Part shown: positions 8,629-30,672 of the stretch, piece after piece
How positions within the stretch are numbered: the stretch's first letter is position 1
Layout of the letters: the number at the start of each line of letters is the position of its first letter
The notes under the pieces: generated by a model
The model's database searches: none
What the model was told of the DNA's origin: nothing
What the model saw: the letters and a program-made list of their open reading frames with translations, nothing else
Position numbers and translations under genes: made by a program
IMG/VR virus record: IMGVR_UViG_3300021256_000055
Location: 135,124-199,123 of that record
Reading direction: 5' to 3' (one strand)
DNA length: 64,000 bases
From: a virus
Taxonomy: Duplodnaviria; Heunggongvirae; Uroviricota; Caudoviricetes

Positions 8629-9282
8629 TTATTTTTTAGCTTTTGGTGATTTTAATTTTTCAGGTTTTAATAGAGCTTTTCTTAATGTATGTATCTCATC
8701 ATAATTATCATACGATACTTTTTTGTCATCCTCACCTCTAGAGTAAGAATATACGTCAGGATTAAAATAGGCTAAAGCTCGTTTAGTAAAATATTCTACT
8801 TGCGACTTAGCCTTTTCCTTAATATTTAAAAGATTATAAGGTTCAATACCATGATCTCTAGCAAATATTGCATTTTTTAATGCCGTCGCCAAACCTATAA
8901 TTGGGTAGGAATGTTCAAATCCCTCATCTTCTGTATAACTAACACCAATAGAAACAGTTCCTTTACCATTAGAAATGGCTACAACCGACCCAAATGGTTT
9001 TCCTCTCTCAGACTGAATATAACTTAAACCACTATCTGTTACTACTTTATCTCCAATAAAGCCAGGACGTAAACGATTGCATAAATACTTATTTCCGCCT
9101 TTAGTAAAATCTTTAACAAAATCCTCTGCAGCAATTACTTCTTGCGCAAAATTTAATTCATCATTTGAACATCCAAGCTCCTTAGCTGATAGCGATGAAT
9201 TCTCTCTTAATTTTTTTACAACTAGCTTAATTGACTTAGATTGTATTTTATTTTTAAATCTATTTTTTTGTGAAAAGCTCAC
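8629..9282 (-). CDS. hypothetical protein (217 aa), Lys-rich termini
   Basis: Intact ORF. Confidence 0.5.
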   Translation of the reverse strand: MSFSQKNRFKNKIQSKSIKLVVKKLRENSSLSAKELGCSNDELNFAQEVIAAEDFVKDFTKGGNKYLCNRLRPGFIGDKVVTDSGLSYIQSERGKPFGSVVAISNGKGTVSIGVSYTEDEGFEHSYPIIGLATALKNAIFARDHGIEPYNLLNIKEKAKSQVEYFTKRALAYFNPDVYSYSRGEDDKKVSYDNYDEIHTLRKALLKPEKLKSPKAKK

Positions 9283-9836
9283 TTATCATTACCTACACTA
9301 CTAAGTATTTTTGTTGCTATTCCAAATCCTAAACCGCAGACTGCGCCTAAAACATGATTCTGATGCGCAATATGATCAGTCTTTGTGAACATAGCTAAAA
9401 ACTCTGGTAAAACAAATACCAATAAAAGTATAATACTAGTTATAGGTAATCCTTCAGACTCATCAGTCTGGAATGTGTTCAAAATAACCCACATATATGC
9501 AATAGATGATAATCCATAACATGGTATGCCAGATACCACAGATACTATACCTATAACTAGAGCGCCAAGTAGTGTAATTATCGCCAACGGAATTGTACCA
9601 AATTTATCTTCAATGGAAGGACCGAGCATAGCAATATAAACAATATTACCCAAAAAATGGCTCCATCCACTATGACCAAAAATATGTAAAACAATACCTG
9701 CATTCCATTTATTATTTGTTGCAAAATGACTAGCAAAATTTGGAATAAAACATTCCTGAATAAGAACAATAATAAATGAAATAAAAATCAATAAAACTGT
9801 AAAAGTTGACTCAAATGACACTAACTTCTTCTTCAT
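9279..9836 (-). CDS. rhomboid-family intramembrane serine protease (185 aa)
   Basis: Several TM segments. A TM2-like HIFGHSGWSHFLGN...LGPSIEDKFG matches the H..H...N / G..E...G motif. A catalytic Ser candidate lies in YGLSSIAY. A TM6 His lies in HIAHQNHVLGAVCGLGFG. Confidence 0.65.
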   Translation of the reverse strand: MKKKLVSFESTFTVLLIFISFIIVLIQECFIPNFASHFATNNKWNAGIVLHIFGHSGWSHFLGNIVYIAMLGPSIEDKFGTIPLAIITLLGALVIGIVSVVSGIPCYGLSSIAYMWVILNTFQTDESEGLPITSIILLLVFVLPEFLAMFTKTDHIAHQNHVLGAVCGLGFGIATKILSSVGNDK

Positions 9837-9839
9837 AAA

Positions 9840-10415
9840 CTATGCGCTATACTTATTAAGAATATCCTGAAGCTCATCCTTAGAGCCTTCGCCTTTTGCT
9901 GCAAACTTCCATTCGCCATTGTGACGATAAAGCTCTGCAACAATCATTGAAGCAGCTGTTGAATAGTCTTCTGAAAGATCAAAACGGAATTCTTCCTTAC
10001 CATTTGTATCATCCATAGATGAAAGGCTAAGAAGACGGATATAAGCATTATTTACCATACCAAAATTCTGCTTACGTTCAGCAGCCTTATGAATTGTTAC
10101 TGCAAATACAATGTGTTCAATATTTGCTGGAATCTTTTCAAAGTCAATAAGAATTGACTCATCATCACCAGCAGCATCACCTGTACGATTGTCACCAGAA
10201 TGGATAACAGCTCCAGAACTATGCTTTGTATGATTGTAGAATACAAAGTCATCATCTGATGTCATCTTTGAATTTGCACCAAGCAAAAATACTTCAGTGT
10301 CCAAATCAAAATCGGCTCCATTATCATAGCCATTTACATCCCAACCAAGGCCGGCCTTAGCAAAGCGCATTCCCTTGTCCAAAGAAACTTTCTGTCCTTT
10401 CTCAAGATTAATCAT
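9840..10415 (-). CDS. terD: TerD-domain protein (paralogue 1, 191 aa)
   Basis: MINLEKGQKVSL...GLGWDV...DFDLD...GDNRTG...GDDE...EIYRHNGEWKFAAKG are canonical TerD/TerE/TerZ (tellurium-resistance, Ca-binding) motifs. Confidence 0.85.
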   Translation of the reverse strand: MINLEKGQKVSLDKGMRFAKAGLGWDVNGYDNGADFDLDTEVFLLGANSKMTSDDDFVFYNHTKHSSGAVIHSGDNRTGDAAGDDESILIDFEKIPANIEHIVFAVTIHKAAERKQNFGMVNNAYIRLLSLSSMDDTNGKEEFRFDLSEDYSTAASMIVAELYRHNGEWKFAAKGEGSKDELQDILNKYSA

Positions 10416-10819
10416 TTAAGATCCTCCAATATTTTGTTAACTTCTTTTTCAGCTAACATATAATAATATGTTTTCGGGTCATACAAAAGTCTAACTCCAA
10501 TAATATCGGAATAAGAGCCCTCATAAGCGTATACTTCCAATTTTATTGGAAGATAACTACCCTTTTTAGATATTTTAGCCCAATTAAGCTTAATATCTCT
10601 TGCGATATCTTGCCTAATATCTTCTACTGTTAGAACAACATATGGACTCAAAAAAGGACCTTTATCATACGAAAACTCATATTCTAAGCCATCTTTGATT
10701 TCTATATAATTTAGAAAATCTAAATGATGACAAAGACTATTATTGTTTATCATATTTTCAAAAGTCTTTTGAGCCCTCTTTAAGTAAAAAAGGGGAGACC
10801 TACTAAGATATTGCTCCAT
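10412..10819 (-). CDS. hypothetical protein (135 aa) embedded in TerD array
   Basis: Intact ORF overlapping TerD1 by 4 nt. No motif. Confidence 0.5.
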   Translation of the reverse strand: MEQYLSRSPLFYLKRAQKTFENMINNNSLCHHLDFLNYIEIKDGLEYEFSYDKGPFLSPYVVLTVEDIRQDIARDIKLNWAKISKKGSYLPIKLEVYAYEGSYSDIIGVRLLYDPKTYYYMLAEKEVNKILEDLK

Positions 10820-10833
10820 AATCTCCCTATTTA

Positions 10834-11415
10834 TTAGCAGCTTCCACCATACTTACGTACAAATGCTTCAAGGCCACCAGCAAAGCCATCACCCTTTGCA
10901 GCAAATTTCCATTCACCATTATGGCGATAGATTTCAGCTACAAGAATAGCTGTTTCTGTTGAATAGTCTTCAGACAAATCAAAACGGAGTTCTTCCTTAC
11001 CTGACTCAGCACCTGCCTTTTCAAGAGAAAGCAAACGAATAAATGCATTGTTTACCATACCAAAATTCTGATGGCGTGTTTCCGCATCATGAATTGTTAC
11101 AACAAACGCAAGCTTTTCAATATTTGCTGGCACTTTAGTGAAATCAATATAAATTGATTCATCATCACCTTCTCCAGCGCCTGTACGATTATCTCCTGAA
11201 TGTATAACTGCGCCAGATGCATGTTTCTGGTTATTATAGAAGATAAAATCCTCATCTTTTTGAAGTTTATCTCCAGATCCAAGCATAAATACTGATGCGT
11301 CAAGATCAAAATCCTGACCGTTATCAAAACCATTTACATCCCAGCCAAGACCTGCTTTAGCAAACTTGATTCCAGAATCAAGTGAAACTTTCTGTCCTTT
11401 AGATAAGTTAATCAT
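10834..11415 (-). CDS. terD: TerD-domain protein (paralogue 2, 193 aa)
   Basis: Same motif set as paralogue 1: MINLSKGQKVSLD, GDNRTGAGEGDDE, EIYRHNGEWKFAAKGDG. Confidence 0.85.
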   Translation of the reverse strand: MINLSKGQKVSLDSGIKFAKAGLGWDVNGFDNGQDFDLDASVFMLGSGDKLQKDEDFIFYNNQKHASGAVIHSGDNRTGAGEGDDESIYIDFTKVPANIEKLAFVVTIHDAETRHQNFGMVNNAFIRLLSLEKAGAESGKEELRFDLSEDYSTETAILVAEIYRHNGEWKFAAKGDGFAGGLEAFVRKYGGSC

Positions 11416-11441
11416 TAACTACTCCTTAAATTTTTATTACT

Positions 11442-11455
11442 TATATAATATGTGA
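11442..11455 (-). promoter_or_regulatory. conserved TATAATATGT-type motif instance
   Basis: Plus-strand tatataatatgtga, upstream of TerD2. An AAGGAG ribosome-binding site lies between it and the ATG. Confidence 0.4.
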
Positions 11456-11471
11456 ATATTTTACGCTAAGT

Positions 11472-11825
11472 CTAGCTTTCAAGTAATTTAGAAACTTCAT
11501 AATTTGCTACATCTACATAATATTTATGCTCATCATAACTAATTTTGGCCATTATACTAAAACCTTCAACATAGAAGCTAATGCTAATTGGAATACATAT
11601 ATCCTTAATAGTATTTTTCCAAATTATTCTTAAATAATCTAATTGATAATCTAAATAACTTGGATCAGGACCAATTCTCATTCCGCTTATTTCTACAATA
11701 TAAAAATCTTCACCTTGCTTAGCCAACCTAACATAATTATATCCATTAGCAAATACAGCCCTTCTCAAAATAAGAAGGGCTTTCTTTAAGTAATTCTCAG
11801 GTGTATCAGTTATTTCTAAAAACAT
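11472..11825 (-). CDS. hypothetical protein (117 aa) embedded in TerD array
   Basis: Intact ORF. Confidence 0.5.
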   Translation of the reverse strand: MFLEITDTPENYLKKALLILRRAVFANGYNYVRLAKQGEDFYIVEISGMRIGPDPSYLDYQLDYLRIIWKNTIKDICIPISISFYVEGFSIMAKISYDEHKYYVDVANYEVSKLLES

Positions 11826-11827
11826 AT

Positions 11828-12355
11828 TTATTTATAACAAACTGAACTTACTGAAACTATTGAAGTATACGGATTAGTATCTACTTTATTTGGATAATCA
11901 GGATAGTTTGGGGTTCTTACATAAACTCTCTTTTGAAAATCCTGATAAGCGGTAGTATAAGACATATTATAAGTAGAATGACTTACACTATGCCTACGCC
12001 CATTATATACAAAATAGTACTCAGCACTATGATGTCTAGACTTTCTGGTTCTATGTCCCTCACTGTCAGTAACATAATAGTATTCTGTCCATGCGGGCTT
12101 ATATTCTCGCATTATATTCCATGACTCAGTATAAACTGGTCCACGCTCACTTTCAATCTCTGAAGTTGTATAGCTATATGTCTTATGAAGATGAACTATA
12201 CCTTTTCCAGCATAGAAAATCAAAACACAAGCTAATACAATTCCTACCAGAATCATAAAAGTCTTACCAACGCTGTCCCAAGGAATCTCATCCTTAAGTA
12301 CAGTAAGCGCAGAAGGCCTAGAACTGTACTTATTCTTTTCTGATGCCATTAGCAC
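11828..12355 (-). CDS. membrane-anchored hypothetical protein (175 aa), Tyr/Thr/His-rich ectodomain
   Basis: One N-terminal TM helix (FMILVGIVLACVLIFYAG). The rest is Y/T/S/H/R-rich. Confidence 0.5.
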   Translation of the reverse strand: MLMASEKNKYSSRPSALTVLKDEIPWDSVGKTFMILVGIVLACVLIFYAGKGIVHLHKTYSYTTSEIESERGPVYTESWNIMREYKPAWTEYYYVTDSEGHRTRKSRHHSAEYYFVYNGRRHSVSHSTYNMSYTTAYQDFQKRVYVRTPNYPDYPNKVDTNPYTSIVSVSSVCYK

Positions 12356-12930
12356 TGTCCACCGTACATACGAACGAATCCAGCTAATCCATTCTTGAAT
12401 CCGTCACCTTTTGCGCCAAACTTCCATTCACCATTATGACGATAAATTTCAGCAATCAAAAGGGCTGTCTCAGTAGAATAATCCTCGGTTAAATCAAAAC
12501 GAAGTAATTCTTCTCCAGCTGTATCTTCTTTATTTTTTACTGCAGTAAGATGAATAAATGCATTATCAACCATACCAAAGTTCTGTCTACGCTGATCAGC
12601 TTCATGAATTGTTACAACAATTGCAAGCTTGCTAATACTTGCTGGGATCTTTGTAAAATCAATATAAATCTGTTCATCATCACCGTCTCCGGCGCCGGTA
12701 CGGTTATCTCCCATATGTTTTACTGACTTTGAAGGATGCTCCAAATTATTATAGAAAACAAAATCTTCATCTTTCTGAAGTTTACCATTTGCGCCAAGCA
12801 TAAATACAGATGCATCCAAATCGAAATCAAAACCGCCACTATATTTATTTGTATCCCAACCAAGACCTACATAGGCATACTGTGTGGATTTTCCAAGTTC
12901 AATTTTCTGTCCTTTTACGAGATTAATCAT
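12349..12930 (-). CDS. terD: TerD-domain protein (paralogue 3, 193 aa)
   Basis: MINLVKGQKIEL...GLGWD...DFDLD...GDNRTGAGDGDDE...EIYRHNGEWKFGAKGDG. Confidence 0.85.
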   Translation of the reverse strand: MINLVKGQKIELGKSTQYAYVGLGWDTNKYSGGFDFDLDASVFMLGANGKLQKDEDFVFYNNLEHPSKSVKHMGDNRTGAGDGDDEQIYIDFTKIPASISKLAIVVTIHEADQRRQNFGMVDNAFIHLTAVKNKEDTAGEELLRFDLTEDYSTETALLIAEIYRHNGEWKFGAKGDGFKNGLAGFVRMYGGQC

Positions 12931-12943
12931 TTATATTCCTCCA

Positions 12944-12962
12944 GGGCGTTTTATAACGCCCC
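12944..12962 (-). other. GC-rich hairpin (gggcgttttataacgcccc) between TerD4 and TerD3
   Basis: Stem seen in the sequence. On the minus strand it is followed by a GGAGG ribosome-binding site, not a U-run, so it is more likely an intercistronic RNA structure than a strong terminator. Confidence 0.35.
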
Positions 12963-12975
12963 GATTTTTAATTTT

Positions 12976-13551
12976 TTAGTTATAGCGGTTAACAACAGCG
13001 CTGACATAATCAGCGTCTTTTACACCTTCACCAATAGCTGCGAACTTCCATTCACCGTTATGACGATAAATTTCACCAGCAATCAAACCTGTTGATGTAC
13101 CTTTAGATTCATCAAGATTGAAACGTGCAAGCTCTTCATTGCCATTCTTTGGATTGTAAAGACGAATATATGCATTACGCAAAGCAGACATATCCTGTCC
13201 ACGTTTTGATGCTTCATAAATATTCATGAAAACTACAATCTTATCTACATTTGAACGAACTTCATTCAATGAAATCTCAATTGTTTCATCATCACCGTCG
13301 CCACCACCAGTACGGTTATCTCCAGAGTGATGAATACCAGGAAGGTCCTTATTGCTGAAATAAACAGTTGATTCATTAAACTGTCGAGAAACTACTCTAC
13401 CATCTGAGCCCAAACAAACGCAAGAAGCATCACAGTCAAAATCTGCTGCCCAAGAACTCTGCACTGGGTCCCAACCAAGACCAACATTAATTTTTGTAAG
13501 GCTTGTACCTTTTGTAAGATCAATTTTCTGACCCTTTGTTAAATTAATCAT
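12976..13551 (-). CDS. terD: TerD-domain protein (divergent paralogue 4, 191 aa)
   Basis: MINLTKGQKIDL...GLGWDP...DFDCD...SGDNRTGGGDGDDE...EIYRHNGEWKFAAIGEG. Confidence 0.8.
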   Translation of the reverse strand: MINLTKGQKIDLTKGTSLTKINVGLGWDPVQSSWAADFDCDASCVCLGSDGRVVSRQFNESTVYFSNKDLPGIHHSGDNRTGGGDGDDETIEISLNEVRSNVDKIVVFMNIYEASKRGQDMSALRNAYIRLYNPKNGNEELARFNLDESKGTSTGLIAGEIYRHNGEWKFAAIGEGVKDADYVSAVVNRYN

Positions 13552-13574
13552 TTAACATCCTCCAAATATTTTAA

Positions 13575-14162
13575 TTACCAGCGATTAATAATTTCTGAAA
13601 TACGACTAGCATTTTTAATTGATTCACCAACCGCAGTGAAATTCCAACCATCTTCCGACTTAGACAATTCTCCTGCTATAAATCCTTCAACTGGTCCCAG
13701 GTCTTTATCCAAATCATAACGACAAAGTTCTTCATTAGTGTCTGCGTTATATACACGAATATAAGCATTTCTCAAACTTGTCATATTCTGATGACGATCT
13801 CGCGCATCATAAATATTCATAAAGATTGGAATACGTTCAACATTATTTGGAAGTTTGTCAAAGGTGATAGAAATCGTTTCATTATCTTTATTTCCGCCAC
13901 CAACACGATCATCACCAGAATGATGAACACCAGCCATATCTTTATGACCATAATAAACTACATAATCAGTTCCAAGAAGTTTACCCTTCTTGGAAAGACA
14001 TGCCAAAGAAGCATCACAATCAATATCTTCATCATTACTAAAAATTGATAAAAGACCCTTTTTGCGTTCTACTTCATCCCAGCCTAAAGCAACATTGATA
14101 TGCTTAAGCGTACCATCTTTTTTTACAAGGTTAATTCCCTGTCCTTTTGTTAAATTAATCAT
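13575..14162 (-). CDS. terD: TerD-domain protein (divergent paralogue 5, 195 aa)
   Basis: MINLTKGQGINL...ALGWDE...DIDCD...SGDDRVGGGNKDNE. More degenerate, but the same architecture. Confidence 0.7.
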   Translation of the reverse strand: MINLTKGQGINLVKKDGTLKHINVALGWDEVERKKGLLSIFSNDEDIDCDASLACLSKKGKLLGTDYVVYYGHKDMAGVHHSGDDRVGGGNKDNETISITFDKLPNNVERIPIFMNIYDARDRHQNMTSLRNAYIRVYNADTNEELCRYDLDKDLGPVEGFIAGELSKSEDGWNFTAVGESIKNASRISEIINRW

Positions 14163-14171
14163 ATTTTTTAC

Positions 14172-14573
14172 CTACTTAGCCCAAAGGCCTTTAATAACAA
14201 TATCACTAGAATATTCTGGACATAATTTATATTTTCCTGATTTTGTTTTTCTTGCTAAAGACTGCGCAGTAACAAAATCTAATTGTGAATAAACAGGCGG
14301 CCCATATCGATAAAGCCGACGGTCGTCATAATCACCATAAGCATTTGGGTCTTCTAAAATAAGATGATATTGTACTGCGTCTATATATGACTTATAGTAT
14401 GTATCATTGCCCAAGTCCTTAAGAACTGCTAATCTAGTCAATTCTTTTGTATTAAGGCTAATAGGCCTAACATCGATTACCTTGTATTTAACTTCAATTG
14501 TTTCATAGCATTTATTACAACTTATAAGAAATAATGATGAAATAACTAATAAAGCAAATAATAACTTTTTCAT
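14172..14573 (-). CDS. lipoprotein (133 aa)
   Basis: Signal peptide with lipobox: MKKLLFALLVISSLFLISC. Confidence 0.55.
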   Translation of the reverse strand: MKKLLFALLVISSLFLISCNKCYETIEVKYKVIDVRPISLNTKELTRLAVLKDLGNDTYYKSYIDAVQYHLILEDPNAYGDYDDRRLYRYGPPVYSQLDFVTAQSLARKTKSGKYKLCPEYSSDIVIKGLWAK

Positions 14574-14599
14574 AAAACCTAAAATAAAACCACCATTAA

Positions 14600-14618
14600 A
14601 AATGGTGGCTATAGTTCT
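14600..14618 (-). terminator. rho-independent terminator (ccaccattaaaaatggtgg)
   Basis: 7-bp stem followed on the minus strand by ttttattttaggtttt. Sits 3' of the 14621..15232 gene. Confidence 0.55.
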
Positions 14619-14620: not shown

Positions 14621-15232
14621 TTAGAGAACCAAATCTCCATCAGCTGATGTTACAACACGAATACCATAAGTTTTTGTATCTACTTCGGCTGTTGGATCAA
14701 TAGCTACAGTTGCGTCCTTAACAATTGTTAGTGTCTGAGGAAGCTGAGCTACTTCATTTGCAAGTGCTGATTCTTTTGCACAATTGAATACACAATAGTC
14801 ATAACAAAGACCAGTAAAATACAAATTTACTTTTTCACCATTCTTAATAGCGTCATCAATTGGCTTCATATCTTTTTCTGACAGTCGTCCAAGAACATCA
14901 ACACCATACTCTTCTTCAGCTGCATTCTGGCCTTTATAAATAAAGGCAACTGGCTTGTCCTTTGCAAATGCAGAAATCATATCAGATACACGCCAATCCA
15001 AATCAGAACCAGCTGTGCCATCTACACAGTGTGCAGGCCAAGGACCATTCTGCTCCTTAAATGAACAGTGATTAGTAGGATGCATATCCTTTGTGGCGAT
15101 AATCATATCAGGATTAATTCTTTCCTGAGCAATCTTAAGCTTATTAAAAGCTTCATCCCACTTGTCATAACCGACTCCAAGTGAGCCGTTAATAAAATCG
15201 TTCTGAACATCTACCAAAACTAAAATATTCAT
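14621..15232 (-). CDS. pncA: nicotinamidase/pyrazinamidase-like isochorismatase-family hydrolase
   Basis: VLVDVQNDF N-terminal Asp motif. Catalytic Cys lies in YFTGLCYDYCV. Fold-typical length of 203 aa. Confidence 0.7.
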   Translation of the reverse strand: MNILVLVDVQNDFINGSLGVGYDKWDEAFNKLKIAQERINPDMIIATKDMHPTNHCSFKEQNGPWPAHCVDGTAGSDLDWRVSDMISAFAKDKPVAFIYKGQNAAEEEYGVDVLGRLSEKDMKPIDDAIKNGEKVNLYFTGLCYDYCVFNCAKESALANEVAQLPQTLTIVKDATVAIDPTAEVDTKTYGIRVVTSADGDLVL

Positions 15233-15250
15233 GTTTTAACTCCTTACGAA

Positions 15251-15261
15251 TATAATATGTA
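15251..15261 (-). promoter_or_regulatory. conserved TATAATATGT motif instance
   Basis: Plus-strand tataatatgta, upstream of the pncA-like gene. An AAGGAG ribosome-binding site follows. Confidence 0.4.
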
Positions 15262-15283
15262 TTTTAATATTAAAAATGCTAAA

Positions 15284-15550
15284 TTATTTTAATCTCTCAT
15301 GATTAAATTTTTTTGTATATTTGTTAACTTCTGCTTCTGTGAGCTTACCATAAATTCTTTCCATAAGAAAGAGTATTGCGTCTAATCCTGCATAAAATCC
15401 ATCAAAATTAAAAAATAAAATTTTATTAAAAAAATCTTTTTTAGACAAATTATCGGCGGGCATAACGCAAGCACTTCTTATACCCTGCTGTTCTTTTGGA
15501 GATACCTCAACTTGTTCACGATTTGCATTATACCTAAAAACCAAATCCAT
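15284..15550 (-). CDS. hypothetical protein (88 aa)
   Basis: Intact ORF. Confidence 0.45.
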   Translation of the reverse strand: MDLVFRYNANREQVEVSPKEQQGIRSACVMPADNLSKKDFFNKILFFNFDGFYAGLDAILFLMERIYGKLTEAEVNKYTKKFNHERLK

Positions 15551-15594
15551 AATAAGCTCCTTCCCTTCCTAGGTATAATATGTCTATGAAGATA

Positions 15595-16152: not shown

Positions 16153-16322
16153 TAAAAAACCTCTGCAAGAAATTTACCAATAAAAATTGAGGCTGTCCCA
16201 CCTAGAAGGATAAAAACTAATCTACGAAAGAAATGTGTCCACTTAAAAGACTCATCTGGAGTAAGCTTTACTTCATATAGAGTCTTATCTTCCTCATCCT
16301 TAATTTTAATAGTCTTTTCCAT
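16152..16322 (-). CDS. small membrane protein (about 56 aa), not in the supplied ORF track
   Basis: My own translation: MEKTIKIKDEEDKTLYEVKLTPDESFKWTHFFRRLVFILLGGTASIFIGKFLAEVF. Its stop overlaps the nadD start (TAATG). The conserved motif abuts its ATG. Confidence 0.4.
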   Translation of the reverse strand: MEKTIKIKDEEDKTLYEVKLTPDESFKWTHFFRRLVFILLGGTASIFIGKFLAEVF

Positions 16323-16323
16323 A

Positions 16324-16337
16324 TTTATAATATGTAA
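16324..16337 (-). promoter_or_regulatory. conserved TTTACATATTATAAA motif instance abutting a start codon
   Basis: Minus-strand reading is ACATATTATAAAT then ATG. No ribosome-binding site in between. Confidence 0.45.
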
Positions 16338-16360
16338 TTTATATTAAGAAATTATGAATT

Positions 16361-22553: not shown

Positions 22554-22555
22554 TT

Positions 22556-23374: not shown

Positions 23375-23437
23375 TATATCTCCTACGAAATGCCTCTTTA
23401 GTAAAAATACTTAAGGTCTTTTTCTCTTAAAAAATTT

Positions 23438-24226
23438 TTACCAAAGATTTTCAATATAGAAAGGCAAATCTGGATGATAATAGTCAATATTGATATATCT
23501 GCGCTTCCACTTATTACGCTTTATGATACCAACAATATTTTCATTATGATTTCCAACTTTACCAATGCGAATAAATGCATCAAGTTCCTCATAAGAGAAT
23601 CCAAGCTTATCCTCATCTGACTTATATGACCCATCCTCATTTACGGACATACCATCAATTGGAGTTTTATTATAAAGTTTTTCTGGAAGTCCAAGATACT
23701 TTGCAATAGCGCGAACTTCTGTTTTTGTAAATCTTGCAATTGGAGCAAATGCGCCAGTAGAGTCTCCCCAAACTGTATCATATCCACAAGCAGTTTCAGA
23801 AGCGTTACATGTATTTGCAGGATAAGCATTTCCCATCAAAGCAGCAATACCATAAATTGTAGTCATACGAATACGTGCAGGCGTATTTGTACTATACTGG
23901 TCTGATACTTTGCCTTTTGTTTCTTCAAGAATTGTATCAGTTAACTTTTTATAGGCTTCACCAATATTTACTTCAAGGCTCTTAATACCAAGAGCGTCAC
24001 AAGCTGCCTTAGCGTCATCAATATCTTTCTGTTCACCACATGGGAGACGAACCCCAATAACTTTATCAGCGCCAAGTGCTTCTACACAAAGCTTTCCAGT
24101 AGTAGTTGAATCAACACCTCCTGAAATACCAAGTACAACTTTTGCATCTGGGCCCTTATCAGCAAACCAGCTACGAATCCAAGCAATACAGCTTTCCGTC
24201 TCTTTCTTTACATCAAACTTATACAT
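23438..24226 (-). CDS. nadE: NH3-dependent NAD+ synthetase
   Basis: PP-loop GISGGVDSTT. Length of 262 aa and overall layout are typical of NadE. Confidence 0.8.
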   Translation of the reverse strand: MYKFDVKKETESCIAWIRSWFADKGPDAKVVLGISGGVDSTTTGKLCVEALGADKVIGVRLPCGEQKDIDDAKAACDALGIKSLEVNIGEAYKKLTDTILEETKGKVSDQYSTNTPARIRMTTIYGIAALMGNAYPANTCNASETACGYDTVWGDSTGAFAPIARFTKTEVRAIAKYLGLPEKLYNKTPIDGMSVNEDGSYKSDEDKLGFSYEELDAFIRIGKVGNHNENIVGIIKRNKWKRRYINIDYYHPDLPFYIENLW

Positions 24227-24268: not shown

Positions 24269-26146
24269 TTACCAAAGTTCCTTTGTTTCAGGCTTTATAT
24301 TTTCATCCCAATATGCACCTGTAAAGGTTTCTTCATAATCTACGCCTTTTCTATTTTTCGCAAAATATATATCCATTTCTTCGTAGCCGTGCTCGCCTTT
24401 ATCATCTTTCTGATTAGCTGCCTTTACTACATGATAACCAAATTTATACATAATTTTAAGAAATGCAATATAATATTTATACTTAAAGCTTCTTTTAGGA
24501 GAATAACCATCAAATCTCCAAGAACCATTATAATTCTCTATCTTAACATGAATTTTAATACATTTATGATTTTCATAAACTTCATTACTGATATCCAAAT
24601 GGCCCCGTAATATTGATTCTTTACTTACGCCTTCAATATTGGCAAATGTATTTTCTATCTTAGACAAATCAGAAATTCTAATACCATCTACTAATTCTTT
24701 CCAAATAAAATAATCTCTAGCATAATGTTCTTTCTTTTTTTGGTCATCTTCCAGATATCTCAAATAGTAATCATGGTCATGATCACTAGGCACTATTACA
24801 TAATTATCTACTGGGAATACTATAGTATTCATACAGCTATGTATACTTGTACTATGCCAATAACCATCCTTAATTGCATATCTTAGCCAGCTATCTCTTA
24901 ATGCAGTTGTTTCTAATTCGGATATATCTGTATCTTTCTTAACAATATAATTCTTACTAGAATCTAAGTCAATATCAAGATAATCCTCACGATCACCAAT
25001 TTGTGGATGATAACTTTTTGCAAAGATTTTTCCTTTATTTACATCTTGACCATTTACCATAAGTACTTCTGGACGAATAAAATAACTATCTTTACTTCTA
25101 AGATTACCTGTTAAAATTTTAGTAGCTGATTCAATCAAATCCTTCGGAAGTTTACTAAAAGACTTAATAGAATCAATAATGGCTGACATTGTATTATCAA
25201 AATCTTTATATAAATCTTTTACCTCTGTATTATATATTGGAGAATACTCTAACCCAGCGTTTTTAAAAGCTTTAGTTACTCTTGCTTTTAACGATTCTTT
25301 TCCTACAAGGCCATTCTCAATAATATATTGCTTTTCTATAGCATAAGATGAGTCGTCAAGGCACAAGAACCTATCAAAATATCCCTTACTGACTACATCT
25401 GCGAAACTTACATTTACAAGTGTTCCATCAAGATTATAATTCTTTTTAGTATCATATAATGGTATTAAATCAATAATTCCCTTTGCTGTTAAGCTTTTCT
25501 TAAACTCACCAAAATATCTTTTTTCATGAAAGTCCTTACTCTCTACCCAACCACGGCCCATATAATTACAGCCCGACTTGTGATATCCACCAATTTGGTT
25601 AAACCAAACTTCTGCCGTAATTTTTGCTAAGAGCTCATTTGGTGCCTCAACTAATAAAACTACTTTGCCTGTCTTTCCATGGTCCTTTCCATAAGAATCA
25701 CCAAAATCAACATCCGCGTTATAAACTTCACCATCCATCCAATCAGTCATTCTGCTAATAGCGCTGAATAAATATTGCTTCTGTGCTCTATGACGACTCT
25801 GCATTAAATCAGTATACTCTTCATAAGAAAGCTCTTTTTTATATTTAGGAAATTTATAACTTTCAAGATAATTAATATAATTTTCCCCAAAAAACTCTTT
25901 TTGAGTAAGTGGGTAAAATAAGCTATAAGTGCTATGATGTGATCTAGTTTTTGTAACATTTTCAAAAGGATTATGCTTATAATTTTTATTTGTTTTCAAT
26001 TCCCCAAATGCTTTTTCTTCTCTTTTCTCTACATAGCCCTTGAGTGTTACAATATCATCTGCAAAAATACCTGTCTTTAAGCCTTTTGCATCTTTTATAT
26101 GAAGAGCATTAATTACTTTTGATTCATCAAATTTTAATTTTTCCAT
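24269..26146 (-). CDS. large hypothetical protein (625 aa)
   Basis: Intact ORF. No motif I can assign. A His/Asp-rich patch VPSDHDHDYY is present. Confidence 0.55.
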   Translation of the reverse strand: MEKLKFDESKVINALHIKDAKGLKTGIFADDIVTLKGYVEKREEKAFGELKTNKNYKHNPFENVTKTRSHHSTYSLFYPLTQKEFFGENYINYLESYKFPKYKKELSYEEYTDLMQSRHRAQKQYLFSAISRMTDWMDGEVYNADVDFGDSYGKDHGKTGKVVLLVEAPNELLAKITAEVWFNQIGGYHKSGCNYMGRGWVESKDFHEKRYFGEFKKSLTAKGIIDLIPLYDTKKNYNLDGTLVNVSFADVVSKGYFDRFLCLDDSSYAIEKQYIIENGLVGKESLKARVTKAFKNAGLEYSPIYNTEVKDLYKDFDNTMSAIIDSIKSFSKLPKDLIESATKILTGNLRSKDSYFIRPEVLMVNGQDVNKGKIFAKSYHPQIGDREDYLDIDLDSSKNYIVKKDTDISELETTALRDSWLRYAIKDGYWHSTSIHSCMNTIVFPVDNYVIVPSDHDHDYYLRYLEDDQKKKEHYARDYFIWKELVDGIRISDLSKIENTFANIEGVSKESILRGHLDISNEVYENHKCIKIHVKIENYNGSWRFDGYSPKRSFKYKYYIAFLKIMYKFGYHVVKAANQKDDKGEHGYEEMDIYFAKNRKGVDYEETFTGAYWDENIKPETKELW

Positions 26147-26172
26147 TATTATCTACCATCATAATTTAATTT

Positions 26173-26859
26173 TTAGTATAAACGGCATTTTGCATTTTCA
26201 CCAAATTTATCTTTAACAAACTTAAGAAACTTATTATGCTGAGTCCAATAATCTTTTATATCTTTATCCAAACAAACATAATCCTTGCAGCATCTCTCTA
26301 GGCGTGCTGATACAGGCATTCCCTTTACTGGTCTATACTTTAACATTAAAAATGGTCTAGGACTAGTATAATATTGATCTAGGAGAATATCTCTGTTTTG
26401 TCCCAAATAATGAATACCAAGATGTGCTAAATAGCTTCCTTTTTCAATTTCTGAGTCATTATATGACTTTACAGGATAGCCATCCTCATCGAAATTATCT
26501 ACAATAACATAGATTCTACCTGGTAATAAATACTGTAAAGTTGTTTCATCATGAAAATTTGGCTCAAATGAACATACGGGCTCTTTTTCCATTTTTCTAA
26601 TAGAAACTTTATGCGTATCATCGTCTATAATTGTTTCAATTTTTTTAACTTTCCAAACTTTTGCTGAGGCCCCCGCTTTTGAAACGCGCTCTGCATCTCT
26701 TTCTGCAACTTCAAGGTCATTATACAATAGCGCAAGGGTTTTATCCTTTGTATAATTATAAGTTTTATTTACATCCCACTGGCAACTAAATCTATCACCT
26801 GGTACTGGTTTATAATACATTGATTTACAATAATCGTCTGAACATTCTATTAAGTACAT
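26173..26859 (-). CDS. hypothetical protein (228 aa)
   Basis: Intact ORF. Confidence 0.5.
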   Translation of the reverse strand: MYLIECSDDYCKSMYYKPVPGDRFSCQWDVNKTYNYTKDKTLALLYNDLEVAERDAERVSKAGASAKVWKVKKIETIIDDDTHKVSIRKMEKEPVCSFEPNFHDETTLQYLLPGRIYVIVDNFDEDGYPVKSYNDSEIEKGSYLAHLGIHYLGQNRDILLDQYYTSPRPFLMLKYRPVKGMPVSARLERCCKDYVCLDKDIKDYWTQHNKFLKFVKDKFGENAKCRLY

Positions 26860-26906
26860 ATATAGCTCCTTTTAATATAATATATAAATAATTCTATAAA
26901 AGTATA

Positions 26907-26929
26907 AAGCCGAGCAAAATACTCGGCTT
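26907..26929 (-). terminator. rho-independent terminator (aagccgagcaaaatactcggctt)
   Basis: 8-bp stem, T/A-rich flanks. Sits 3' of the purA-like gene. Confidence 0.5.
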
Positions 26930-26934
26930 TTATA

Positions 26935-28038
26935 TCAAAGTTCCTTTGTATCATAAAAATTTATTGGATGCATTAAAAATGTGTTTCTAAACTCATCTGT
27001 TCTGTCCATTTCATCACAGTGTGTGACTTCCATTATATAAGGCAGTTTCTTATGAGTAATCCTTCTAATCTCCTTATCACATCTTTCTTTTAATTCTGTG
27101 ATAGAAAGAGGAGAATAATAAAAATCGCGCTGCCACTCATTATATTGATTTATTTCTACTGAATTATCTATCAACTTTGGTAGCTCTATATCATTAACCC
27201 ATTCTCTAGATCCATGACGAGTCAAATATGGTCTTGTAACAAAATGAATTATTGGTTTCTTTTCAATATTACCATATAATGTGCGAATACCTGTCTCAGA
27301 TGGTGTTTTTTCAATATTATCAGTGCCATCATCATTTAAGAGCAAACCTTGCCCATTTTCAATAATAACATGCTTTTTTTCGCTAACACTTATGCTATCG
27401 CGAACCATACATGATAAAAACATATTCTCACAATCACTTATAAAGTGATTAATTGTTCCATCACTAAACCATGCGTCATAATATTCATTTGTTACATTTA
27501 CTTTTTCAATTTTACCAAAATAAAAGTCCCTAATAATAAGAAGATATTTTATTTTTTCATCTAAGCTTCTTGTACAAAATTCTGAAAATGGTATAGAATA
27601 ACCACATTCGTAACGCTTAATAGTCTCCCATATGCCCATTCCACAAGAGCCTGTCCATCTTTCCTTTTGATGTATTTGATTCACCATCATATCCCATGGT
27701 GTAGACCACATACACGCTTCATTCCTAGAAGTTTTAGGGTAAAATCCATAAGTATGGTATATTTCATCTTTTTCTTTTACAAACTGCATAGGATTAAGAA
27801 TATATTTAGGACCAAAATAAGACTCTACCGAAAGAGGAGTTGCAGATCCGAAATGCTTAAAAATATGTTCTTTTCCATTTACGCTTACAGAGTGGCCTCT
27901 CTGAGCGCCACCATTGTTTAGTATAACAATTGTATTATCATAATCATTATAGGCTTTTGCAATGCGCGCAGTTATAATTCCTTTTCCTTCGTCGCCCGCA
28001 CCACTTCCAATAACAATATCTAAGCTTTTCTTATCCAT
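26935..28038 (-). CDS. adenylosuccinate synthetase family protein, short form (PurA/PurZ-like, 367 aa)
   Basis: The P-loop VIGSGAGDEGKGII corresponds to GDEGKGK. NGGAQRGHSV corresponds to the GGxNAGH His motif. ENGQGLLLNDDGTDN corresponds to QGxLLDxDxGTYP. It is about 60 aa shorter than canonical PurA. Confidence 0.7.
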   Translation of the reverse strand: MDKKSLDIVIGSGAGDEGKGIITARIAKAYNDYDNTIVILNNGGAQRGHSVSVNGKEHIFKHFGSATPLSVESYFGPKYILNPMQFVKEKDEIYHTYGFYPKTSRNEACMWSTPWDMMVNQIHQKERWTGSCGMGIWETIKRYECGYSIPFSEFCTRSLDEKIKYLLIIRDFYFGKIEKVNVTNEYYDAWFSDGTINHFISDCENMFLSCMVRDSISVSEKKHVIIENGQGLLLNDDGTDNIEKTPSETGIRTLYGNIEKKPIIHFVTRPYLTRHGSREWVNDIELPKLIDNSVEINQYNEWQRDFYYSPLSITELKERCDKEIRRITHKKLPYIMEVTHCDEMDRTDEFRNTFLMHPINFYDTKEL

Positions 28039-28067: not shown

Positions 28068-28079
28068 ATAAAAAAATAA

Positions 28080-28104
28080 GAGCATAGCTTTTTAGCTATG
28101 CTCT
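28080..28104 (-). terminator. rho-independent terminator (gagcatagctttttagctatgctc)
   Basis: 9-bp stem followed on the minus strand by ttatttttttat. Confidence 0.6.
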
Positions 28105-28129
28105 TTAATTCAATTAAAGATAATATAAC

Positions 28130-28474
28130 CTACCAAGTAATTACGCCTGATTCAGTATTAACCTCAGTATATGTTTTATTAAAAGTATCCTTTTTAACTG
28201 GATAAACTGACCCATCAATTCCCTTTACAAAATAATCACCATCCTGAATCGGCGACAGAATAGGCTGTCTACCAGCATTATAAGTATCACATGAAAAAGT
28301 AATTCTTGGATAATCATAGGATTTATAGCCCTTATTTAACTCATCCTCAAATACGGGTATAATATCAACATCCCTACACATTTTTTCTAGGTCTGGCCAC
28401 CATTCGCTACGATTAAAAAATGTACATTGAACAGCTTCAACCTCTAAAGGACGCTTTTTATATTTCTTTACCAT
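28130..28474 (-). CDS. hypothetical protein (114 aa)
   Basis: Intact ORF. Confidence 0.45.
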   Translation of the reverse strand: MVKKYKKRPLEVEAVQCTFFNRSEWWPDLEKMCRDVDIIPVFEDELNKGYKSYDYPRITFSCDTYNAGRQPILSPIQDGDYFVKGIDGSVYPVKKDTFNKTYTEVNTESGVITW

Positions 28475-28800
28475 GTAATTCCTTCCTCATCCATTCTATA
28501 TCTTTTCTTAAAAGCCTCATCTGTCATAGAATTAATTTCACCATTTGAATGGATTAAAAGCCATTCTGTAGAATACAAACAAAACTCTGTATTTTCCAAA
28601 ACTACAATTATACGAATTTTATCTGTATACATTTTATCTGTTGGGTTATAAAAATCAATCCTATGTGGAACTCCATTAAGGAATTCTTCTAAAGAAGCTA
28701 AAATTTCTTTAGCTTCTTTTTCAGTATGAAAAACAGGTATTTGTATAGCTCTAGCACTATCTGGCCTTACTATATAAAAACCTTGTTTCATTTCTACCAT
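28468..28800 (-). CDS. hypothetical protein (110 aa)
   Basis: Intact ORF with overlapping start and stop. Confidence 0.45.
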   Translation of the reverse strand: MVEMKQGFYIVRPDSARAIQIPVFHTEKEAKEILASLEEFLNGVPHRIDFYNPTDKMYTDKIRIIVVLENTEFCLYSTEWLLIHSNGEINSMTDEAFKKRYRMDEEGITW

Positions 28801-29705
28801 ACAATCGCACCTGTTTCATCATGCTTTACGGTATTATCAGCCTTCTCAGCAAGATGCTCTTTATTCTTATAACTACGTTCAATAAGTTTTACAATATTGT
28901 TCTTCAAACTATCAACTGAAGAAACAATATAATTATCATCGCCAATTACTGACTTAAATGACTTATCAACGCGCTCTTCATATGAGTCACCATCACCCTC
29001 ATAATTTGTACGATGGTCCTGAACAGTAATATGGTAAATATCAAACTTCTTTGATGCAGCTTTATAAAGCTTATCTGTATCAAATACATATTCTGTATTT
29101 TTACCAGAATCTGTTTTTTCGCCAAGGAAATCAAATACTTCCCTTTCATGGAGTCTTGGATTCAAAGGTTCATCACCCATTGTAATAATAATGCCTTTTC
29201 TTCCCTGCTTATCATAACAATCTAGCTTAGTTCTGTAAAGACCAAACCACCATGGTGCTGTATAACTTTCATACCCATTACCACCACCACCTTTTTCAAG
29301 CCAAACCTGGTCCATTTGTTTAGCAACACGAACATCTGATTCGAACTGTGAAACCTGAAGCGGTGCATCATCACACTCAAAGTCACCGACGCCCATTACC
29401 ATGACCTCAACATCCTTAAACTTCTCATAAAGGTCTTTCATCAAAGCTGAAATTGAAGCAGCACACTCATCGCATGCTGAGCCCATAGAACCAGTAACAT
29501 CCAGGGCAAGAATTACAGGAACTGTATTTGGATGCTCTTTTGAATTACAGCACTCCCTAATTTTTCCTTTTGCATTCAATTCTCTTGAAATTGACCTAGC
29601 ATTAAAAGTATGCCCTGAAACACGATGTGTTGATGTATCATAAACTGTACCAACTGATTTTGAATAACTCGCAAATGAGCTTACACTATAGCTTCCGCCA
29701 CCCAT
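28794..29705 (-). CDS. von Willebrand factor A (vWA) domain protein, TerY-like
   Basis: VILALDVTGSMG is the MIDAS D-x-[ST]-x-S motif. Downstream ITMGDEP is vWA-like. Confidence 0.6.
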   Translation of the reverse strand: MGGGSYSVSSFASYSKSVGTVYDTSTHRVSGHTFNARSISRELNAKGKIRECCNSKEHPNTVPVILALDVTGSMGSACDECAASISALMKDLYEKFKDVEVMVMGVGDFECDDAPLQVSQFESDVRVAKQMDQVWLEKGGGGNGYESYTAPWWFGLYRTKLDCYDKQGRKGIIITMGDEPLNPRLHEREVFDFLGEKTDSGKNTEYVFDTDKLYKAASKKFDIYHITVQDHRTNYEGDGDSYEERVDKSFKSVIGDDNYIVSSVDSLKNNIVKLIERSYKNKEHLAEKADNTVKHDETGAIVW

Positions 29706-29766
29706 ATATTTCTCCTTTATTTTAACTTACTAATAATTTGCCCCCTTTATAGGAGGCAAACTTTAT

Positions 29767-30672
29767 TTAGGCTTTCTTTTCTGCGGCTTCAAGAGCTGCA
29801 AGTTCTGCCTTAAGACGTGCTTTCTTTTCTTCTGGAGTTTCATCCTCAACAGCTGTTGTTGGGTCGAAATCTGCTTCTTCAAAGTCGAAATCGAACATTT
29901 CAGAAAGGTCCATATCTCCGTCTTTGCCACCAAGCATATTGCTCATCATCATCATTCCGAGCATACTATTTGCATCACCGTTACCAGCACTAAAGCCGTC
30001 ACCGCCCATAAATGATTTGAGCATATTCATTTTAAACATCATACCCATCATTCCACTGATGCCCTTTCCCTTCTTAAGGAAGTTGTTACTACCAAACATA
30101 GAAACAATCTTGCGGTAGAAGAACATCTGTCCCATGAAGAAATGACGCTCTGGTACAATTTCCTGGATTGCACTATTTTCGTAATCCATTACCTTAATTG
30201 TCTTATTTGCATTATTTTCAATAACACACTTTGGTTTACCATCAATCAAAAGGATATCACCTGTCTTTGCCTTTGTAGTTGGAACTACAAAGAAAAATTC
30301 CTGGCCAATGTCAAAACAGAACTGTGTTACATTTGTAAGACGACCAGTCTTTACATCATATGTTTTGTATCCATTTGAAGTTTTAACAGCCATCTGACCA
30401 TTAAGGCCAAGACGACACATACCCTTACCAAGGCGGCTAAACATGTCACCAAACATTCCATTCATTGCACTATCTAAACTCATCTCTTCTTCCTCCTGAG
30501 ATTCTAAATAACTATCTAAAACTGATTTTGAATGGTCGCTTATATTTATACCACAAGCTTCTAAACTGGAAAGTGCAGCACTTATACCAGGTGAGTGAAA
30601 CATATCACTCCATGCATTTAAGCTTGATCTTAAGCCATCCAATTTATATAAGTCATAATTTGCAATACTCAT
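29767..30672 (-). CDS. Met/Gly-rich hypothetical protein (301 aa) with acidic C-terminal tail
   Basis: The C-terminal third contains GMMGMMFKMNM...MLGMMMMSNMLGG low-complexity Met-rich tracts followed by a Glu/Ala-rich helix. Confidence 0.5.
   Translation of the reverse strand: MSIANYDLYKLDGLRSSLNAWSDMFHSPGISAALSSLEACGINISDHSKSVLDSYLESQEEEEMSLDSAMNGMFGDMFSRLGKGMCRLGLNGQMAVKTSNGYKTYDVKTGRLTNVTQFCFDIGQEFFFVVPTTKAKTGDILLIDGKPKCVIENNANKTIKVMDYENSAIQEIVPERHFFMGQMFFYRKIVSMFGSNNFLKKGKGISGMMGMMFKMNMLKSFMGGDGFSAGNGDANSMLGMMMMSNMLGGKDGDMDLSEMFDFDFEEADFDPTTAVEDETPEEKKARLKAELAALEAAEKKA

Follow-up and report, generated by a model that had tools for sequence, protein, structure and literature searches.

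The 64,000-nucleotide stretch analyzed here (the window) comprises positions 135,124 to 199,123 of the IMG/VR virus record IMGVR_UViG_3300021256_000055 (Caudoviricetes), and our interest lay in the block of genes between its positions 9279 and 30672, in which an earlier, sequence-only reading had seen a single composite Ter-like metabolite and anti-defence island. Searches against Pfam and NCBIfam bore out the genes named in that reading, namely those for a rhomboid, five TerD proteins, a PncA-like protein, NadD, Nudix, PARG, His_Phos_1, NadE and a PurA-like protein, and the complete set of features is listed in Table 1. These genes can be grouped into modules. Module A (9.8–14.6 kb) is a tandem array of predicted Ca-binding TerD stress proteins, and module B (14.6–24.2 kb) would combine nicotinamide adenine dinucleotide (NAD) salvage of the Preiss–Handler type (PncA, NadD, NadE) with the removal and recycling of ADP-ribose (PARG, Nudix, His-phosphatase). 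Module C (26.9–30.7 kb), hereafter the trio, appears to be an independently mobile and widespread cassette in which a gene for a Met-rich protein is followed by one for a stand-alone vWA protein and one for the PurA-like ligase. The modules occur independently in relatives, which speaks against one composite island, and we consider it likely that the block is not one system: in this lineage, at least three separable modules would have come to lie side by side in the co-directional, accessory portion of the genome of a gut jumbo phage.

Table 1. Features of the window in order of position (ORF, open reading frame)
Feature	Position	Strand	Evidence or remark
Rhomboid-family membrane protease	9279-9836	minus	Pfam Rhomboid, E 5.5e-13
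TerD array module	9840-14573	minus	five TerD paralogues interleaved with small ORFs
TerD paralogues	9840-10415, 10834-11415, 12349-12930, 12976-13551, 13575-14162	minus	Pfam TerD, E 1e-49 to 1e-73
o135	10412-10819	minus	small ORF between TerD genes
o117	11472-11825	minus	small ORF between TerD genes
o175	11828-12355	minus	single transmembrane segment
o133	14172-14573	minus	lipoprotein-like
Terminator-like hairpin	14588-14610	minus	10-bp stem and T-run, in the 47-nt gap between PncA and the TerD array
NAD salvage sub-cluster (PncA-like, o88, NadD, o186, o75)	14621-17114	minus	
PncA-like nicotinamidase/isochorismatase	14621-15232	minus	Pfam Isochorismatase 30.5 bits; NCBIfam PncA, E 1e-13 (weak)
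NadD NaMN adenylyltransferase	15595-16152	minus	TIGR00482, E 1.7e-27, 96.7 bits vs cut-off 112
Terminator-like hairpin	17142-17167	minus	after Nudix gene; 11-bp stem, 5 GC pairs, T-run
ADP-ribose sub-cluster (Nudix, M32, PARG, o195, His_Phos_1)	17188-21336	minus	Pfam
Nudix	17188-17820	minus	Pfam
Peptidase_M32 carboxypeptidase	17833-19362	minus	Pfam, E 1e-143; overlooked in the sequence-only reading
Microbial-type PARG	19355-20206	minus	Pfam
His_Phos_1 phosphatase	20752-21336	minus	Pfam
Terminator-like hairpin	21362-21387	minus	upstream of His-phosphatase gene
o149, o102, o131 (signal peptide), o272, then NadE	21394-24226	minus	four ORFs unannotated
NadE NAD+ synthetase	23438-24226	minus	Pfam, E 7e-50; TIGR00552 157.6 bits vs cut-off 63.65
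o625, o228	24269-26859	minus	lineage-specific; adjoin NadE side of the trio
Terminator-like hairpin	26906-26930	minus	directly after PurA-like stop codon; 11-bp stem, 5 GC pairs
PurA-like NTP-dependent ligase (putative), third trio gene	26935-28038	minus	Pfam Adenylsucc_synt, E 6e-14
Terminator-like hairpin	28078-28105	minus	just upstream of PurA-like gene
o114, o110	28130-28800	minus	between vWA and PurA-like genes in the window lineage
Stand-alone vWA protein with MIDAS, second trio gene	28794-29705	minus	phrog_2971, E 1e-44
Met/Gly-rich protein, first trio gene	29767-30672	minus	
o112 and promoter-like site (31069-31096)	30729-31096	minus	TTGAAT-16-TATAAT, 10/12 consensus matches
ORF ending the strand run	31098-31514	plus	ORF list
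SPFH/Band-7 gene	31566-32393		adjoins the trio unit in the window

Separate neighborhoods of the modules

The gene-neighborhood analysis was anchored on the vWA gene and covered 48 viral/GenBank loci and 80 loci from GTDB genomes, with flanks of ±10 kb. In the 48 viral loci, whose vWA proteins span 41–83% identity, the three genes always stood on the same strand in the order Met-rich, vWA, PurA-like. A PurA-like gene stood beside the vWA gene in 47 of the 48 viral and 79 of the 80 genome loci, and a Met-rich gene lay upstream of it in 46 and 76 of them, respectively. Within 10 kb of the trio, TerD was found in no viral locus and in two of the 80 genome loci, and NadE in 8/48 and 8/80, while M32, the His-phosphatase, o625 and o228 were found in none of either set. 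Taking TerD as the anchor (n = 80), NadE was present in seven loci, PncA in four and vWA in five, the last figure being roughly what a random placement of two genes in a genome of 150–200 kb would give. The conservation of TerD, vWA and NAD genes as neighbors, which had been proposed as a check on the composite island, thus came out negative for TerD, with TerD near the trio in two of 128 loci and vWA in five of 80 TerD loci.

The same separation was seen among cultured phages, in which the vWA and PurA-like proteins each match 220 records with an identical taxon breakdown (~201–202 from Mycobacterium, 10 from Rhizobium, six from Vibrio and one from a gut phage). TerD matches 128 phage records, and only the Rhizobium and Vibrio groups among them also have the vWA/PurA-like pair; the 201–202 mycobacteriophages that carry the pair are without a TerD match. 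NadE was detected in 45 phage records, none of which belongs to the Mycobacterium, Rhizobium or Vibrio groups. In Rhizobium phage TM30, TerD lies >20–30 kb from the pair, and a shorter distance across the circular origin was considered and rejected, as that region holds structural genes.

Anchoring on M32/PARG in IMG/VR found no relatives, and the protein database then gave two, L220 and L221. L220 shares with the window 88% identity in M32, 97% in NadE and 88% in SPFH, and its genes run in the order SPFH, NadE, ..., His-phosphatase, PARG, M32, ..., NadD, PncA, TerD, TerD, TerD. Here NadE comes directly after SPFH with no trio between them, and the backbone of NAD and TerD genes is syntenic with that of the window. 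Because SPFH and NadE abut in L220, the window segment 24269–31514, which holds o625, o228, the trio and small ORFs, constitutes an indel on a conserved backbone. A PurA-like gene with 40% identity does occur in L220, on the other side of SPFH, where the contig ends. In L221 the order is PARG, M32, an unannotated ORF, Nudix, YAcAr and NadE, and this relative also carries a homologue of o625 with 51% identity. No homologue of o625 or o228 was found in the 128 trio loci, and neither protein matched Pfam, PHROG, NCBIfam or PADLOC. The PADLOC search, in which ten proteins were submitted, likewise returned no match for the three trio proteins, PARG, TerD, SPFH, o272 and o195.

The gaps between the modules are occupied by terminator-like hairpins. 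On the coding strand, 16 such hairpins were counted between 8 and 28 kb vs 8.0 ± 2.6 in shuffled sequences, and six between 28 and 34.5 kb vs 2.7 ± 1.5. The separate neighborhoods, the indel revealed by L220 and these hairpins together therefore argue for a mosaic of separately evolving modules.

The claim that all genes from 9279 to 30672 are on the minus strand and tightly packed held up: 95.8% of the segment is coding, and its 32 ORFs are separated by gaps with a median length of 23 nt. Nevertheless, the minus-strand run really extends from 145 to 31067 and the rest of the window is 95.2% coding, and hence neither co-directionality nor packing singles out the block as the distinct unit it had been taken for. 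Its edge at 9279 is arbitrary, and the sole natural edge lies at 31.1 kb, where it is marked by a plus-strand ORF and by a promoter-like site (31069–31096) that probably starts the transcription unit holding the trio. As to the origin of the DNA (~31% GC in the window), the window belongs to a metagenome contig of 203,783 bp (ENA ERZ12302812 NODE_59). Its relatives include viral contigs in IMG/VR, the longest reaching 424 kb, and one GenBank record derived from a virome and named 'Bacteriophage sp.'. No phage hallmark gene was found in the window, where ten further ORFs scanned against PHROG gave no match, a tRNA scan of the window found none, and megablast of the block against GenBank phages returned no match. 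The location on a phage, as first described, is drawn from IMG/VR and the virome relatives; likewise, descent from a jumbo phage can be reasonably inferred but is not a demonstrated fact.

The Met-rich, vWA and PurA-like proteins

A profile of 17 PurA-like members compared with the PDB matched bacterial PurA with an E-value of 6e-37 and PurZ (6FM1, 6FKO, 7ODX, 7VF6) with E-values of 7e-8 to 8e-5, and the PurA-like protein of the window reached 39 bits against an NCBIfam PurA equivalog cut-off of 402. Residues G15, D16, G18, K19, G20 and H49 were invariant in the 17 diverse members, and the invariant features of the family include GDxGKG, the catalytic His, the equivalent of Q224, TPSNTG and RxYxTRHG. 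The family is accordingly like PurA in its fold, in the P-loop GDEGKG, in the equivalents of the catalytic Asp13/His41, in the base-contacting Gln, and in the TSSNT-like and TR(V/H)G motifs. It differs from PurA in the Asp-binding loop, where TTGRxRR is replaced by N-x-x-Q-G, in the missing C-terminal third (~100 aa, the alignment stopping near PurA residues 285–321) and in a score far under the equivalog cut-off, whereas to PurZ its similarity is marginal, and from both it is set apart by the obligatory pairing of its gene with a vWA gene. An identity as PurZ, despite the PHROG and GenBank labels of relatives, was ruled out by the profile search against the PDB. The PurZ pathway has as partners DatZ (an HD dATPase), MazZ and DpoZ, and Pfam detected no HD or MazG domain in the ORFs of the block, which forms part of a 64-kb window from a contig of at least 204 kb. 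By sequence comparison, the PurA-like family forms a clade of its own, separate from both canonical PurA and PurZ. The protein is predicted to be an active NTP-dependent ligase with a nucleoside-monophosphate-like substrate and a second substrate different from that of PurA; given that the phosphotransfer and nucleotide residues are kept and the Asp site is lost, it probably acts on a nucleoside monophosphate by activating an oxo group and coupling a nucleophile other than aspartate.

The vWA domain of the second trio protein was undetected by the sequence libraries, including Pfam, and structure supported the original call of a vWA protein with a metal-ion-dependent adhesion site (MIDAS). The AlphaFold2 (AF2) model reached a predicted local distance difference test (pLDDT) value of 82.7 and a predicted template modeling score of 0.86; Foldseek against the PDB returned 279 matches at E ≤ 1e-3, and the 50 listed were all vWA/integrin beta-I domains. 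In the MIDAS, D69xT71G72S73 and T175MGD178E were invariant across 34 homologues and T149 nearly so. The family is large (6083 clusters at 90% identity and 1596 at 50%), its members are stand-alone proteins of ~300 aa, and no domain fusion was found among the top 150 of the 1596 clusters. A vWA protein identical to that of the window is on record from a 940,564-bp contig as well, which may represent a much larger genome or else a concatemer or mis-assembly. That the first trio protein is Met-rich was likewise verified, with 9% Met vs 2% window-wide and 15 Met within 67 residues. Its alignment exhibits a variable N-terminus, a conserved all-beta core of ~110 aa and a Met/Gly low-complexity region, together with a conserved acidic MFD-x-x-F motif. 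In the AF2 model the core has a pLDDT of 70–83 and the remainder is disordered, with helices predicted in the Met-rich region, and the fold search with this low-confidence model gave no significant match (SH3-like, eIF5A and Tudor folds at E ≥ 0.07). The vWA MIDAS probably binds a partner peptide, for which the acidic tail of the Met-rich protein would be a candidate ligand.

Two small ORFs, o114 and o110, are interposed between the vWA and PurA-like genes in the lineage of the window, and o114, which matches PHROGs of unknown function, is present in nine of the 48 viral loci. The vWA protein, o110 and o114 (28130–29705) have in common a C-terminal I-(T/V)-W, the Trp of which is invariant in the vWA family; in two of these three ORFs the stop overlaps the next start (ATGGTAG, ATGGTAA), and in the third it does not. 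This shared end may be a C-terminal docking motif.

Neighbors of the trio were counted by clustering all ORFs of 129 trio loci. After the trio genes themselves, the commonest annotatable neighbor was an NrtR-like gene, found in 41 loci by clustering and in at least 47 by tblastn, all of them bacterial and from the set of 80 genome loci, on the same strand in 30/30 and within 300 nt in 18/30. PncB followed in 16 loci (eight viral, eight bacterial), LemA in 15 (13 viral; 1–2 kb downstream of the trio, e.g., L042 12020–12583) and PncA in 10 (seven viral, three bacterial), and NadE was also a recurrent neighbor. After clustering of the vWA proteins at 70%, NAD enzymes were near the trio in six of 16 viral clusters and NrtR in five of 25 genome clusters. 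Additionally, in Vibrio phage pv27 the vWA/PurA-like pair has a NADAR gene ~1.1 kb upstream. In Rhizobium phage TM30 it has, 3–5 kb upstream (L001 4540–6867), genes for a HAD hydrolase, a ComF-like PRTase_3 (PRTase, phosphoribosyltransferase) and a Nudix protein, and the Nudix gene is labeled 'cytidyltransferase' in the record. Also upstream of vWA in TM30, gp016 (L001 8297–9163) gave a weak match to the hidden Markov model of the Met-rich family (E 8e-4). The third trio member may thus exist in a highly diverged form outside gut phages. The link of the vWA and PurA-like genes to NAD genes contained in the sequence-only reading accordingly found circumstantial support in the NrtR, PncB, PncA, NadE, NADAR and Nudix neighbors, while the link to TerD fell away.

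In bacteria the trio can be seen in a true chromosomal setting. On a 3.2-Mb contig of Lachnospiraceae bacterium AC2031 (L186 9300–17063), with no phage genes, it is located between a two-component system and a gene for a 1,297-aa STAND-like NTPase, and an NrtR-family Nudix-wHTH (winged helix-turn-helix) regulator and a methyltransferase-domain protein come next; a chromosomal, non-prophage trio with an NrtR operon also occurs in Eubacterium ruminantium. Operator-like palindromes, many of them in tandem across a CTTGACA promoter, were present in the 300 nt upstream of the operon in 20 of 29 loci with NrtR, vs four of 32 genome loci lacking NrtR and two of 41 viral loci, and the window has none. 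The palindromes are of the class ATTATC-N5-GATAAT or, in other NrtR subgroups, AGTAGC-N5-GCTACT or TAGTTA-N-TAACTA; such a difference by subgroup at the same position is expected if operators co-vary with the regulator. In L186, L218, L213, L194 and others, tandem 21-bp palindromes, ATATTATCA-N3-TGATAATAT, overlap a CTTGACA promoter ~30–150 nt upstream of the Met-rich gene. The NrtR-family Nudix-wHTH regulator is absent from the window, and the phage copies of the trio are without it.

The nearest systems in the literature are bacterial ones that are regulated by NrtR/WYL and contain vWA 'peptide-binding chaperones'; their predicted role is to oppose ADP-ribosylation by viruses (Iyer et al. 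2022, PMC9503650, section 3.8). The trio operon of Lachnospiraceae resembles them in its Nudix-wHTH regulator, its vWA protein and its operator-like palindromes, as well as in a variable distribution across phages and hosts like that of conflict systems. It differs in lacking the ARG glycohydrolase or rhodanese-phosphatase core and in the PurA-like ligase, which is undescribed in that work, and our literature searches found no description of a Met-rich/vWA/PurA-like trio.

The TerD array, the NAD genes and the flanking regions

The five TerD paralogues are 34–69% identical in pairs, and the Ca-binding motif GDNRTGxGxGDDE is intact in four of them. The small ORFs o135 and o117 are weak paralogues of each other (31% identity over 62 aa, E 9e-4), which suggests that a unit of one TerD gene and one small ORF was duplicated. 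Three tandem TerD copies were found in 75 of the 80 TerD-anchored loci, none of which contained a rhomboid homologue near the array. Multiple tandem TerD paralogues with intact Ca-binding motifs are features shared with Ter systems, and abbreviated Ter gene sets and TerD arrays are known in jumbo phages (Iyer et al. 2021, PMC7824862). A role in membrane stress or superinfection exclusion has been proposed for such arrays. Independently transcribed terD operons have also been described in the gut 'Jug' phages (PMC12880540); as there, TerD genes of the window flank small hypothetical genes, and the terminator-like hairpins suggest separate transcription.

The likeness to Ter systems ends with the TerD domain. 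The reference ter locus of Klebsiella comprises TerZ, TerA-E, TerF, TelA and an ATP-grasp protein, a PRTase, an HpcH aldolase and a HAD protein; HAD phosphoesterases and PRTases are two of the kinds of enzyme that make up the Ter biosynthetic module (PMC7824862). Pfam matched no TerB, TerC or TelA/TerA in the 32 ORFs of the block and 10 flanking ORFs, and detected none of the biosynthetic enzymes (ATP-grasp, PRTase, HpcH aldolase, HAD) among the block ORFs. Klebsiella TerF consists of TerD and vWA-TerF-like domains and scores 238 bits on PF10138, whereas the vWA protein of the window had no Pfam vWA-TerF-like match; hhalign of its family profile against TerF gave a probability of 2.8%, the aligned part being the 17-residue MIDAS strand only, and an identity as TerY/TerF was rejected on these grounds. 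With a vWA protein of an unrelated family and no biosynthetic enzymes, both the 'TerY-like' label and the description of the block as a distinct arrangement of the Ter biosynthetic-module theme fail in the tests run.

In the NAD salvage sub-cluster, the PncA-like protein retains the catalytic D8, K100 and the Cys of DYCV, and NadD and NadE are encoded 7.3 kb apart on one strand. PncB was sought with Pfam NAPRTase in the block and by tblastn of the PncB of the relative L048 against the 64-kb window, and neither search found it; it is present in L048 and L049. The stop of PARG and the start of M32 overlap by 8 nt in the window (17833–20206), in L220 (8572–10933) and in L221 (3301–5656), an arrangement by which the M32 carboxypeptidase is, as judged from the sequences, translationally coupled to PARG. 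The nearest M32 homologues outside the phage lineage of the window are gut bacterial enzymes with ~50% identity. A viral network of NAD+ and ADP-ribose has been described (Iyer et al. 2022, PMC9503650), and pncB-nadD-nadE Preiss–Handler clusters are known from gut NAD-jumbo phages, for which a function against NAD+ depletion was proposed (PMC11662467). The NAD/ADP-ribose cluster of the window is of this known kind, with NadD, NadE and PncA clustered with Nudix and PARG in a genome like that of a gut jumbo phage, and deviates from it in the lack of PncB, in the coupling of PARG to M32 and in the inclusion of a His_Phos_1 phosphatase. By the activities of their families, PARG, Nudix and the His-phosphatase would fit the removal and recycling of ADP-ribose, and the module as a whole may keep NAD+ available and undo ADP-ribosylation during infection.

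Beyond the block, further accessory genes were observed. An HNH endonuclease is encoded at 7285–7740, and a 659-aa protein (2376–4355, minus strand) carries N-terminal (E 1e-19) and C-terminal (3e-24) beta-ketoacyl synthase domains, a condensing enzyme of the fatty-acid/polyketide type that is unusual in a phage-like genome. On the other side lie genes for a beta-CASP/RMMBL nuclease (34360–35817), a DNA methylase (35884–37794), an acetyltransferase (37797–38255) and an AAA ATPase (39321–40424), as well as a giant 17-kb ORF of 5,671 aa (43718–60733, minus strand) that could encode a virion, injection or surface protein.

Alternative explanations and the role of the trio

Several observations weigh against a mosaic of separable modules and against the function suggested for the trio. 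The flanks of ±10 kb are shorter than the 13–20 kb that separate TerD from the trio in the window, so that linkage at long range was tested indirectly, and the loci L134/L074, L097–L100 and L120 do hold TerD, NAD genes and the trio within 4–13 kb in permuted orders, which may reflect selection for keeping them close or a common accessory hot-spot. The terminator and promoter calls are consensus matches alone. Many of the trio loci are phylogenetically redundant, and the NAD and NrtR associations are weaker, though they persist, after de-replication. In mycobacteriophage Sebata the pair adjoins Pnk and a Ser/Thr kinase and not NAD genes, and the function of the trio is read from its neighbors only.

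Under the strongest form of linkage, the whole block would be a single composite Ter-like system: TerD proteins as sensors, the vWA protein as a counterpart of TerY and the nucleotide and NAD enzymes would jointly produce or detect a nucleoside-like metabolite that serves anti-defence. The co-directional and tightly packed genes would be in keeping with this, as would the position of TerD, NAD genes and trio within ~13 kb in L134 and L120, the synteny of the NAD and TerD parts in L220, and the gene content of TM30, where HAD and PRTase_3 (enzyme types of the Ter module, PMC7824862) and Nudix lie near the pair and TerD occurs elsewhere in the genome of the phage group. We nevertheless regard it as the least probable of the explanations considered, and as a highly improbable one. 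Co-directionality and packing are genome-wide, and L220 has no trio between SPFH and NadE. Of the 128 trio loci, 126 have no TerD nearby, and none was matched in the ~200 mycobacteriophages with the pair. The vWA protein stands outside the TerF/TerY family, and TerB, TerC, TelA, ATP-grasp, PRTase, HpcH and HAD are missing from the block. As for TM30, its TerD is remote from the pair, and its PRTase_3 was rejected as a Ter-module PRTase, since BLASTP found it similar to neither of the candidate PRTase ORFs in the ter module of Klebsiella.

Two other explanations concern the trio itself. The PurA-like protein could be an auxiliary purine enzyme, either an adenylosuccinate synthetase for AMP/dATP or a PurZ making 2-aminoadenine, with the vWA and Met-rich genes as unrelated neighbors. 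Such a role would agree with its PurA similarity in Pfam, NCBIfam and the PDB, with the label '2-aminooxy adenylosuccinate synthetase' given to relatives in PHROG/GenBank, with the invariant catalytic Asp, His and P-loop and with an AT-rich genome, but it is made unlikely by the gulf between the PurA and PurZ matches of the profile, the score far below the PurA cut-off, the altered TTGRxRR loop and truncated C-terminus, and a block in which no HD or MazG-type partner was found. The near-perfect adjacency to vWA and the identical phyletic pattern in four phage lineages and bacteria point instead to a multi-protein unit, and the copy in Lachnospiraceae is under NrtR control and additional to the housekeeping genes. 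A very unlikely explanation, in our estimation, is that the trio forms a membrane-stress, assembly or chaperone module without a link to NAD, in which the vWA protein serves as a peptide-binding co-chaperone and the Met-rich protein as an amphipathic scaffold, grouped with TerD, SPFH and LemA. Besides the window, L038, L043 and L044 have SPFH next to the trio unit, LemA lies downstream in 15 loci, helices are predicted in the Met-rich region, vWA chaperones act in phage assembly (PMC7824862), and Ter vWA proteins have been proposed to form sub-membrane structures (PMC7824862). However, a strictly coupled and catalytically intact PurA-like enzyme, the NrtR operon with operators at its promoter and the NAD-gene neighbors would all be left unexplained, TerD is unlinked to the trio, and SPFH and LemA are minority neighbors confined to some viral clades.

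With the block read as a juxtaposition of separable modules, the trio most likely acts in nucleotide metabolism or conflict linked to NAD and ADP-ribose. A more specific proposal, which we put forward tentatively and hold to be possible without thinking it probable, is that the trio constitutes a system, so far undescribed and common to bacteria and phages, which modifies nucleotides within the NAD/ADP-ribose conflict network. The Lachnospiraceae copies would be repressed by NrtR and induced by signals of the ADP-ribose type, and the copies in Mycobacterium, Vibrio, Rhizobium and gut phages would be unregulated. The PurA-like protein would carry out a new GTP/ATP-dependent oxo-activation and ligation, for instance of a nucleotide from NAD+ breakdown or base deamination, with the vWA and Met-rich proteins as adaptor or substrate.

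Reading the block as a composite island would wrongly merge three things, of which the TerD arrays and the NAD/ADP-ribose clusters are ordinary in gut jumbo phages. The trio, on the other hand, is very common and uncharacterized, with at least 6,000 clusters at 90% identity, ~1,600 at 50% and ~200 sequenced mycobacteriophages, and it is tractable in cluster C mycobacteriophages, in Vibrio and Rhizobium phages, in cultured Lachnospiraceae and in Eubacterium ruminantium. Its PurA-like enzyme has an altered substrate site, and its bacterial copies have a predicted switch responsive to ADP-ribose. If the trio has a part in NAD/ADP-ribose immunity or counter-immunity, this arms race would gain a new enzymatic activity, and the 'PurZ-like' label that the PurA-like genes widely bear would be corrected as well.

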